A DNA stretch of 10,239 nt from a virus (IMGVR_UViG_3300012984_000442:1-10239); one strand, 5' to 3'; positions 3,702 through 3,911 are shown, counted from the first letter of the stretch. Program-made: numbers and translations. The notes: generated by a model from the letters alone, not told the origin.

Positions 3702-3725
3702 GTCCTCGCATGATAGGATGAGAGC
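3702..3725 (+). promoter_or_regulatory. Conserved 5' motif copy 1 (gtCCTCGcaTGATAGGATGAGagc directly abutting ATG 3726); candidate extended -10/leaderless promoter or strong SD
   Basis: The sequence is nearly identical to 9862-9885 (18-nt core TGATAGGATGAG..CATG has 16/18 identities, plus a shared upstream CCTCG). TAGGAT is TANNNT-like with an upstream TG (extended -10 style) and ends 6 nt before the ATG. Alternatively AGGA is a Shine-Dalgarno 7 nt from the ATG. Confidence 0.4.
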
Positions 3726-3911
3726 ATGGAAACGAAACGTGAGATACCTTGGTACAACTTGTTCGCGGCGATCTTGTGCCTGGCTTCTGGCGTGAAGGCG
3801 TTGGTCGACCGTCGATACGTGTTCGGAACGATCCTTCTCGTGACCGGCTCAGCAAACGCCTGGCTCGTCGTTCGTAGGCTCTTCAGCAAAACCCAACAAG
3901 AGAAACCATGA
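3726..3911 (+). CDS. Small 2-TM membrane protein (61 aa), head of array module 1
   Basis: ATG start and TGA stop overlapping the next ATG (ATGA). The protein has two hydrophobic helices (LFAAILCLASGV.. and VFGTILLVTGSANAWLVV). Its pattern resembles the 6693-6950 product (S[AG]+..+..ILL...G.A..W). Confidence 0.6.
   Translation: METKREIPWYNLFAAILCLASGVKALVDRRYVFGTILLVTGSANAWLVVRRLFSKTQQEKP

Follow-up and report, generated by a model that had tools for sequence, protein, structure and literature searches.

Each of three copies of a short motif upstream of start codons in this phage is very probably the core of a promoter for a sigma factor of the sigma-70 family, with transcription predicted to start at the A of the ATG and to give leaderless mRNAs. 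The architecture of the sequences, the position of the motif relative to gene starts, its pattern of conservation in relatives, and the Shine-Dalgarno (SD) and start codon biases of the genes that carry it were all demonstrated. The elements would be of a known kind, the sigma-70-type extended -10 leaderless promoter, found here in an uncultivated phage lineage.

The Window and Its Source

The window, i.e., the whole stretch of DNA that was analysed, comprises 10,239 nt (IMGVR_UViG_3300012984_000442:1-10239), and every plausible gene in it is encoded on the + strand. The genes needed here are the following:

to 1699, + strand: gene with domains of the major-vault-protein shoulder and SPFH types (3' part)
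1785-3638, + strand: SPFH/flotillin-like gene
downstream of the SPFH gene, + strand: about 23 tightly packed small genes with frequent start-to-stop overlaps
3726..3911, + strand: gene for a 61-aa hydrophobic protein, probably a membrane protein
6693..6950, + strand: gene for an 85-aa hydrophobic protein (MLWYF...), probably a membrane protein
9886..10239, + strand: 5' part of the gene for a 165-aa protein, continuing past the window end (full gene L041:10388-10885)

The overlaps among the small downstream genes are ATGA or GTGA, and SD-like sequences are often present. Searches of the window with Pfam and PHROG found little beyond the vault-like and SPFH genes and one stretch resembling T4 Gp23, located in a 118-aa protein (9499-9855); for the 61-aa protein, both databases were without a match. 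Further T4-related domains are T4_Y16D in this phage and Endonuclease_7 in the relative L125. When the vault-like protein was compared with phage records, the sole matches were three uncultured huge-phage records (462-735 kb, 32-36% identity), and the exact proteins of the window are encoded on contigs from soil metagenomes (up to 40.7 kb). The window therefore belongs to an uncultivated soil phage, probably a large one, with a G+C content of about 56%. Merging the soil contigs yielded 25.6 kb of phage sequence around the window.

Independent gene calls on public contigs place starts at the ATGs of 3726, 6693 and 9886. In-frame stop codons are located 1-6 codons 5' of each of them (TGA and TAG 4-5 codons before the ATG of the 61-aa gene), and the N-termini are conserved in relatives from the first methionine: METKR of the 61-aa protein is kept in L126, and the N-terminus of the 85-aa protein in L126 and L128. 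Because of these close stops and conserved N-termini, the three starts cannot be moved upstream. The 61-aa gene is the first in a tightly packed series of small genes.

Six syntenic contigs (L125-L130) were found via homologs of the 165-aa protein (36-69% identity), whose family comprises 13 members including the query itself (36-100% identity, protein database search). The gene order common to these relatives is vault-like, (SPFH), small genes, Gp23-like, 165-aa family and methionine aminopeptidase, and around all three sites L126 and L128 are largely collinear with this phage. L125 and L127 are the more distant relatives. Other searches yielded less. Megablast of the window against phage records gave no match, and the 165-aa protein had no relative among viral contigs. 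With the SPFH/flotillin-like protein, viral contigs returned mostly low-GC huge phages without the motif and one 71% relative (L017), in which the downstream gene differs; metagenome contigs returned relatives of 51-73% and varied G+C, without synteny or motif downstream, and this phage itself was found again twice. The 18-mer TGATAGGATGAGNNCATG had 16 exact matches in viral contigs, which is about the chance number, and blastn of the window against those loci gave no alignments. Strain variants of this phage, at most 1% different, are too similar for footprinting. For host inference, the phosphatase and methionine aminopeptidase proteins were compared with cultured phages by tblastn, which produced distant matches only.

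Copies of the Motif in the Window

The original prediction described a core repeated with near-identity at two distant start codons and a third TAGGAT close to an ATG; coordinates and sequences agree with this description. The copies and their elements are:

3702-3728, + strand: copy 1, the 26-nt motif gtCCTCGcaTGATAGGATGAGagcATG
3691..3696, + strand: -35-like element of copy 1, TGTCAT (TGTAAC in the class described below), 17 nt upstream of the -10 hexamer
3711..3719, + strand: extended -10 of copy 1, TGaTAGGAT, with TG at 3711-3712 and the hexamer at 3714-3719
6681-6695, + strand: copy 3, TAGGATGACTGGATG
6658..6663, + strand: -35-like element of copy 3, TGTACC, placed as in the class, 23 nt before the hexamer begins
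6681..6686, + strand: -10 hexamer of copy 3, TAGGAT, with AGG before the hexamer
9862-9888, + strand: copy 2, gaCCTCG--TGATAGGATGAGgacATG
9850..9856, + strand: -35-like element of copy 2, GTGTAAC, identical to the consensus of the class
9870..9879, + strand: extended -10 of copy 2, G-TGa-TAGGAT, with the hexamer at 9874-9879
4862-4879, + strand: fourth copy, exact TGGTAGGAT-N6-ATG inside the gene 4773-5132, its ATG not in the frame of that gene

The sequence TGATAGGATGAG is found exactly at 3711-3722 and 9871-9882, in both cases with TAGGAT 6 nt before the ATG of the gene, and no further site with up to two mismatches exists in the window. The 18-nt cores of copies 1 and 2 are identical at 16 of 18 positions, and CCTCG is present in both, shifted by a 2-nt indel. 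Copy 3 has just the G of the TG extension. The TAA stop codon (9853-9855) that ends the 118-aa gene upstream of copy 2 falls within the -35-like element of this copy.

Exact TAGGAT-N6-ATG sites start at 3714, 4865, 6681 and 9874, all four on the + strand; with one mismatch allowed, five sites were counted against 0.84 expected, a number reached by none of 200 shuffled sequences. Repetition of a 12-mer is by itself not unusual, as about three 12-mers repeated once are expected in 10 kb and other exact 13-mers occur in the window. The significance of the motif thus comes from its register relative to gene starts and not from the repeated 12-mer alone. In the 15 bases before the ATG, copies 1 and 2 agree at 13 positions; the runner-up among the 253 gene-start pairs in the window agrees at 10, and about 6e-4 pairs with at least 13/15 identity are expected among these 253.

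The fourth copy (4865) was considered as an internal promoter and rejected: a -35-like element is absent, with GTCGAG at the expected place, and the synonymous sites are not conserved. In the L126 ortholog the sequence is CAGGAT...GTG, differing by synonymous changes that leave the peptide SGRIKSW unchanged. We judge this copy to be a coincidence of the SGRIKSW coding sequence and to stand outside the system.

A Probable Promoter Class at a Fixed Distance From the Start Codon

To place the copies in a wider context, 299 called gene starts of this phage and the six syntenic relatives were pooled. TAnnnT is located 6 nt before the start codon in 21 of the 299 genes (1.4 expected), at 5 nt in ten and at 7 nt in eight; the remaining spacings are near background. 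The peak is sharper for TGnTAnnnT, with 15 of 299 genes at 6 nt (0.16 expected), two each at 5 and 7 nt and the remainder near background. A search for TGnTAnnnT-Nd-ATG, independent of gene calls, yielded 16 sites at d = 6 compared to 0-5 at each other spacing, and control triplets in place of ATG showed no spacing peak. All 16 TGnTAnnnT-N6-ATG sites are followed by open reading frames of 52-301 aa. Altogether, 38 of the 299 genes (roughly 13%) carry the hexamer at 5-7 nt.

The 21 sites picked solely by TAnnnT at 6 nt were aligned, with the A of ATG as +1. The hexamer has TA at -12/-11, purines at -9/-8 and T-7, which gives the class consensus TA-N-R-R-T, and it is preceded by an extension of G-16 (17/21), T-15 (15/21) and G-14 (18/21). 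Further upstream the alignment has G-37, G-36, T-35 (18/21), G-34 (16/21), T-33, A-32 (13/21), A-31 (15/21) and C-30, i.e., a -35-like consensus GTGTAAC at -36 to -30 that is not TTGACA. Between this element and the hexamer lies a 17-nt spacer, which is not conserved. Downstream of the hexamer, G-6 and A-5 are weak, C-1 is found in 15 of 21 sites and ATG in 21 of 21. The -35-like element, the TG extension and C-1 emerged from the alignment although none of them had been used in site selection. As a whole, the sites have the composition of a complete sigma-70-type promoter: an extended -10, a -35-like element at the canonical distance, and a pyrimidine-purine pair at the predicted start site, the purine being the A of the ATG.

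This promoter model covers nearly all conserved bases of the 26-mer, namely the last G of CCTCG, TG, TAGGAT and CATG; both the alignment and the orthologs place CCTC outside the conserved element. An operator palindrome CCTC...GAGG was rejected for related reasons: it is partial and found in copy 2 only, copy 1 has a different spacing, and CCTC is not conserved in the orthologs. An upstream mini-ORF overlapping the extended -10, (A/G)TG-ATA-GGA-TGA, was rejected as a by-product, since the consensus bases G-16, T-15, G-14 and T-7, G-6, A-5 already yield it; the other phage lineages, in which CTGACC follows the hexamer, lack this mini-ORF.

Copies 1 and 2 are identical over 12 of 12 bases plus CATG, and the chance of a 12/12 match between two class members is about 3e-4, a rough estimate from the class base frequencies. 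Both have a 6-nt discriminator GAGnnC with C at -1, and the GAG at -6 to -4 is kept at both sites in L126 and L128. The two copies are thus more alike than class membership alone predicts, which points to a sub-class, an additional regulator site or a recent copying event.

Orthologous Sites in Relatives

The three sites were compared with their orthologs in the syntenic contigs:

Copy 1, -10: L126 TGATAGGAT-N7; L128 AGTTAGGAT-N7
Copy 2, -35-like: L126 GTGCAAC; L125 GTGTAAT; L128 GTGTAAC; L127 TGTAAA
Copy 2, -10: L126 TGaTAAGGT-N6; L125 TGgTACGGT-N6; L128 TGtTAGGAT-N6; L127 TACGGT-N7
Copy 3, -10 (AGgTAGGAT-N6 in the window): L126 TGtTAAGGT-N6; L128 TGaTATGAT-N6

Fixed across the orthologs are T-12, A-11, T-7 and the TG, while the inner bases of the hexamer, on which any pairing with the anti-SD would depend, vary freely and the spacers of copy 2 are unrelated between phages. 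The copy 1 orthologs in L126 and L128 retain the -35-like GTGTCAT and have 7 nt to the ATG, compared to 6 nt in the window. In L125 and L127 an ordinary AGGAG or GGAGG replaces copy 1 before the first gene after the vault/SPFH genes. Taken together, the sharp 6-nt bias across the 299 gene starts, the invariant T-12, A-11 and T-7, the -35-like element and the depletion of SD sequences described below bear out the original suggestion of an extended -10 about 6 nt from the ATG, for which the position of the motif relative to start codons was to be checked.

Terminator-Like Hairpin and Translation Signals

Between the end of the SPFH gene (3638) and copy 1 one further feature was found:

3657..3689, + strand: terminator-like hairpin with a 13-bp stem containing nine G-C pairs

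The RNA fold of this hairpin has -27.8 kcal/mol (z = -4.4); at the same place a near-identical hairpin is present in L126 and one of different sequence in L128. It ends 36 nt before the ATG of copy 1, so a transcript of the 61-aa gene that does not result from read-through must start within those 36 nt. Upstream of copies 2 and 3, which sit at the ends of upstream genes, such a hairpin is absent.

Genes with the hexamer at 5-7 nt differ from the others in their translation signals. A 5-mer SD is present in 3% of them compared to 24% of the other genes (299 starts); in a control window further upstream the value is 4-5% in both groups. ATG is the start codon of 37 of the 38 hexamer genes and of 196 of the 261 others (Fisher p = 7e-4), and C at -1 is found in 27 of 38 and 92 of 261, respectively. 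Under leaderless translation, an almost strict requirement for AUG and a lack of SD sequences are both expected.

According to the proposed mechanism, the holoenzyme would start with ATP at the A of the ATG, giving an mRNA without 5' untranslated region, and ribosomes would begin on the 5'-terminal AUG without SD contact; translation of the small downstream genes would use the same transcript. Copy 1 would restart transcription right after the terminator hairpin, and copies 2 and 3 would act as extra promoters within the run of genes on the same strand. A start a few bases further upstream, resulting in a leader of 1-5 nt, is conceivable.

The Same Architecture in Other Contigs

The strict pattern GTGTAAC-N13-GTGnTAnnnT-N5-CATG was used for database searches. 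In IMG/VR it was found in one contig only (145 kb, four matches). This contig contains 14 sites within 9.5 kb, on one strand and before successive small ORFs, with the consensus aGTG(T/C)AAC ... TGgTAGGAT-CTGA(C/T)C-ATG, so that nearly the same 40 nt are repeated for each small ORF. Contigs of 216 kb and 53 kb have the same architecture with AGTGCAAG at the -35 position, and phage contig L149 combines a canonical TTGACA with the same layout of -10, N6 and ATG. Among 185,579 species genomes (596 Gb), the strict pattern gave 16 single matches in unrelated taxa; no genome was enriched, and no clue to the host was obtained. The strict pattern is too stringent for detecting a degenerate host consensus.

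Alternative Explanations

The original prediction also offered a strong AGGA SD with flanking regulator or riboswitch-like sequence, in which case the motif would be mainly a ribosome-binding site, AGGA or GAGG would pair with the anti-SD, and a regulator of translation or a small RNA element in the 5' UTR would account for the conserved flanks. Indeed, all three window copies contain AGGA within the hexamer, at a distance of 7 nt from the ATG, which is normal SD spacing, the 24% of SD matches show that other genes of the phage use such sequences, and read-through mRNAs at copies 2 and 3, which lack an upstream terminator, need some means of initiation. The orthologs, however, exchange AGGA for ACGG, ATGA or AAGG (hexamers TACGGT or TATGAT at the same place) and retain T-12, A-11, T-7 and the exact spacing; since the inner bases change while T, A, T and spacing are kept, the SD is ruled out as the conserved element. 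Pairing with the anti-SD also leaves the invariant T/A/T, the TG, the -35-like element and the C at -1 unexplained, and 5-mer SDs are depleted in the class. The riboswitch-like part received no support, as a search of the window with Rfam at gathering thresholds matched no RNA family; the gap between hexamer and ATG (at most 6-12 nt), considered as room for a structured leader, did not offer that room, and at copy 1 merely 36 nt separate hairpin and ATG. A mainly ribosome-binding function is therefore very improbable, and a dual role, in which AGGA of the window copies also aids ribosome binding on read-through transcripts, is possible. The third suggestion, a recombination or duplication boundary, would make the copies PeSL-like module-swap cassettes with secondary or no promoter activity. 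The hairpin followed by a promoter-like core at copy 1 corresponds to the PeSL layout (PMC4122927), and the region is a series of small, fast-evolving paralogous genes in a phage group with T4-related domains (the Gp23-like stretch and T4_Y16D, and Endonuclease_7 in L125). The likeness of copies 1 and 2 beyond the class consensus and the repetition of about 40 nt before each small ORF in other phage contigs point in the same direction. Against this, the shared sequence is limited to roughly 26 nt and the genes flanking the copies are unrelated; because the flanks are without homology, a boundary is not supported as the primary explanation. In addition, the hairpin is found at copy 1 only, gene order is collinear in L126 and L128 at all three sites, the invariant and variable positions resemble sigma-factor contacts and not uniform homology, and no gene insertion or deletion ending at a motif copy was found among the few close genomes compared. 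We regard this explanation as highly unlikely, while a secondary role of copy 1 as PeSL-like terminator/promoter cassette is conceivable.

Within the preferred reading, a sigma-70-family promoter core with its start at the ATG, the factor that reads the copies may be the host housekeeping sigma or a phage-encoded one. A more specific alternative is that a phage-encoded or alternative sigma factor reads GTGnAAC together with TGnTAGGAT and thereby defines a phage-specific temporal class of leaderless genes. The -35-like GTG(T/C/A)AAC is well conserved, unlike TTGACA, and resembles the AAC motif of ECF promoters; the strict composite does not recur in species genomes yet has many copies within single large phage contigs, and the GAG at -6 to -4 of copies 1 and 2, kept in L126 and L128, adds further bases. 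ECF (group 4) promoters have AAC in the -35, a CGT-type -10 and no extended -10. A TG extension with TAnnnT and invariant A-11 and T-7 is typical of housekeeping-type sigma factors, unlike the ECF -10, so that GTGnAAC fits ECF promoters and TGnTAnnnT does not. The -10 part thus argues against a phage-encoded or alternative factor, as does L149, where TTGACA is paired with the same -10/N6/ATG layout. The lack of recurrence in species genomes has to be read with the stringency of the pattern, which would miss a degenerate host consensus, and the 25.6 kb of this phage showed no sigma-factor gene. We consider a dedicated sigma factor unlikely. An extended version, in which an ECF-like -35 and an extended -10 form a leaderless-dedicated class read by a phage-encoded or re-targeted sigma factor in several large-phage lineages, with the copies, one joined to a terminator, perhaps acting as PeSL-like shuffling points, is likewise doubtful.

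Comparison With Known Systems

Bacterial leaderless genes have been recognised computationally by a TANNNT that precedes the start codon by about 12 nt; Actinobacteria (about 19-20% of genes) and Deinococcus-Thermus (about 39%) contain the highest proportions (PMC3160421). Leaderless mRNAs arise from 21% of the primary transcription start sites of Streptomyces coelicolor, where AUG is preferred and promoters have a -10 TANNNT and a -35 NTGACC (PMC4895711). The phage class resembles these promoters in that only T, A and T are fixed and the hexamer is located at -12 to -7, and it shares the AUG preference, the lack of an SD and the -10/-35 architecture of leadered promoters (PMC3160421, PMC4895711). 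It differs from them in its -35-like element, GTGTAAC rather than TTGACA or NTGACC, in the TG extension, which is far more common in the phage class (15/21), and in belonging to genes of an uncultivated large phage lineage, where the class is known from sequence alone.

A single-gene parallel is ermE, whose transcription begins at the start codon. The promoter ermEp1 of Saccharopolyspora erythraea has the -10 TAGGAT with TGG directly upstream, i.e., an extended -10 (PMC12809767), and, according to Bibb et al. (1994; cited in PMC12809767), no conventional ribosome-binding site is used in translating ermE mRNA. Both ermEp1 and the phage motif thus combine a TAGGAT -10 with a TG extension, an analogy of architecture that implies no sequence relationship; ermEp1 differs in being a single chromosomal resistance-gene promoter with another -35 region.

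PeSL promoters are early promoters of the E. coli type with leaders. In T4-type phages, PeSL cassettes consist of a terminator hairpin and a strong promoter and are near-identical repeats before small variable genes (PMC4122927, PMC2839356); they also mediate gene shuffling (PMC4122927). Copy 1 with its hairpin (3657-3689) has this layout. Unlike in PeSLs, the promoter half alone is repeated in the window, since copies 2 and 3 are without a hairpin. Middle and late promoters of Thermus phage P23-45 are of the extended -10 class and are used by the host sigma-A holoenzyme (PMC7403470). They resemble the phage class in relying on an extended -10 and in a host phylum that is rich in leaderless genes. 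They are described as lacking a -35 element (PMC7403470), whereas the class analysed here has a conserved one.

Implications

If the copies are leaderless promoters as predicted, transcription units become readable from sequence in this soil-phage lineage, where about 13% of genes (38/299) are apparently leaderless, and in some regions of other large phage contigs nearly each small gene would have such a promoter. Gene calling would improve, as starts of the TGnTAnnnT-N6-ATG type are without an SD and otherwise hard to place. Members of the leaderless-rich Actinobacteria or Deinococcus-Thermus become more plausible hosts. The short consensus is testable in promoter and leaderless-translation experiments, and the unusual -35 GTGTAAC is the one feature that could lead to a new sigma specificity.

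Probable promoter arrays and face-to-face promoters

Dense arrays of the same leaderless-type promoter were found in other large phage contigs: at positions 1-9476 of the 145-kb IMG/VR contig L131 (IMGVR_UViG_3300032722_000006) and on contigs L150, L151, L153 and L154. As an example of their density, 14 promoters lie within 9.5 kb on a single strand. Every array promoter stands directly before a small ORF, and the promoters are near-identical, reading GTG(T/C)AAC ... TGgTAGGAT-CTGA(C/T)C-ATG. The array-bearing contigs have almost no detectable protein similarity to the phage of the window.

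In the soil-metagenome contig L041, which carries the same phage as the window, and in syntenic relatives, divergent genes are separated by a conserved intergenic region of 42 nt containing two leaderless-type promoters face-to-face:

L125 (syntenic relative), 15889-15930, face-to-face promoter region
L126 (syntenic relative), 14606-14647, face-to-face promoter region
L128 (syntenic relative), 10018-10059, face-to-face promoter region
L041 (same phage), about 14990-15032, face-to-face promoter region; the partner gene on the minus strand is absent from the gene calls

GTTACA and TGTAAC are complementary, so each -10 element overlaps the -35-like element of the opposite promoter.

Sequence features around the probable promoter copies

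A three-codon mini-ORF, (A/G)TG-ATA-GGA-TGA, overlaps the extended -10 in promoter copies 1 and 2 (3710-3721 and 9870-9881), and mini-ORFs of a similar kind are present in the orthologs of copy 2 in L125, L126 and L128. The consensus bases G-16, T-15, G-14 and T-7, G-6, A-5 probably create the mini-ORF as a by-product.

A perfect 17-nt inverted repeat (6559-6575, CAACGTCCTCGTTTTCA; 7014-7030, TGAAAACGAGGACGTTG) encloses copy 3 of the promoter together with the gene for the 85-aa, probably membrane, protein; the chance expectation for such a repeat is ~0.003 per 10 kb. Each arm is part of the coding sequence on its side; the partner of the downstream arm in L126 is instead a stretch within the 85-aa gene (26 nt, 81%). 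The repeat could serve for RNA pairing over a long range or mark the boundary of a cassette, or it could result from complementarity between hydrophobic and acidic codons.

Gene content of the phage lineage

A major-vault-protein-like gene followed by an SPFH/flotillin-like gene occupies 1-3638 and recurs in the large phage contigs L017-L040 and L125-L127. The pair is kept in many large phage contigs of widely different G+C content (32-60%). The vault-like protein (898 aa at full length) has MVP shoulder, Vault_3 and Band_7 domains, and the SPFH protein has relatives at 63-73% identity on other long metagenome contigs (G+C 36-72%).

Next after the 61-aa, probably membrane, protein is a 105-aa protein (3908-4225) with the pattern KL.R.K.P ... 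EE.ADV.EV; judged by eye, it resembles MazG-like nucleotide pyrophosphohydrolases, and Pfam and PHROG gave no match at E <= 0.01. About 20 small genes of 75-160 aa each follow in a row (4222-9212), most with start-to-stop overlaps (ATGA or GTGA). From their common N-terminal P-G-D/Q-hydrophobic and C-terminal G-W motifs, they look like one diverged paralogous family; none matched Pfam or PHROG. Several small genes (9499-9855, 7497-7976 and 9209-9250) share the starting peptide M-S-(Q/S)-(L/I)-(Q/A)-T-Y-(D/E), the copy at 9209 being truncated by a stop codon. In the 118-aa protein encoded at 9499-9855, one stretch resembles the N-terminal part of Gp23, the major capsid protein of T4 (PF07068, 2e-10).

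Two further proteins encoded in this phage lineage are a methionine aminopeptidase (Peptidase_M24) and a small member of the IF-1/eIF-1A fold family (L041 11872-12618 and 17426-17698, respectively; also in L125-L129). Both are translation-related and might be relevant to a phage that depends on leaderless mRNAs.
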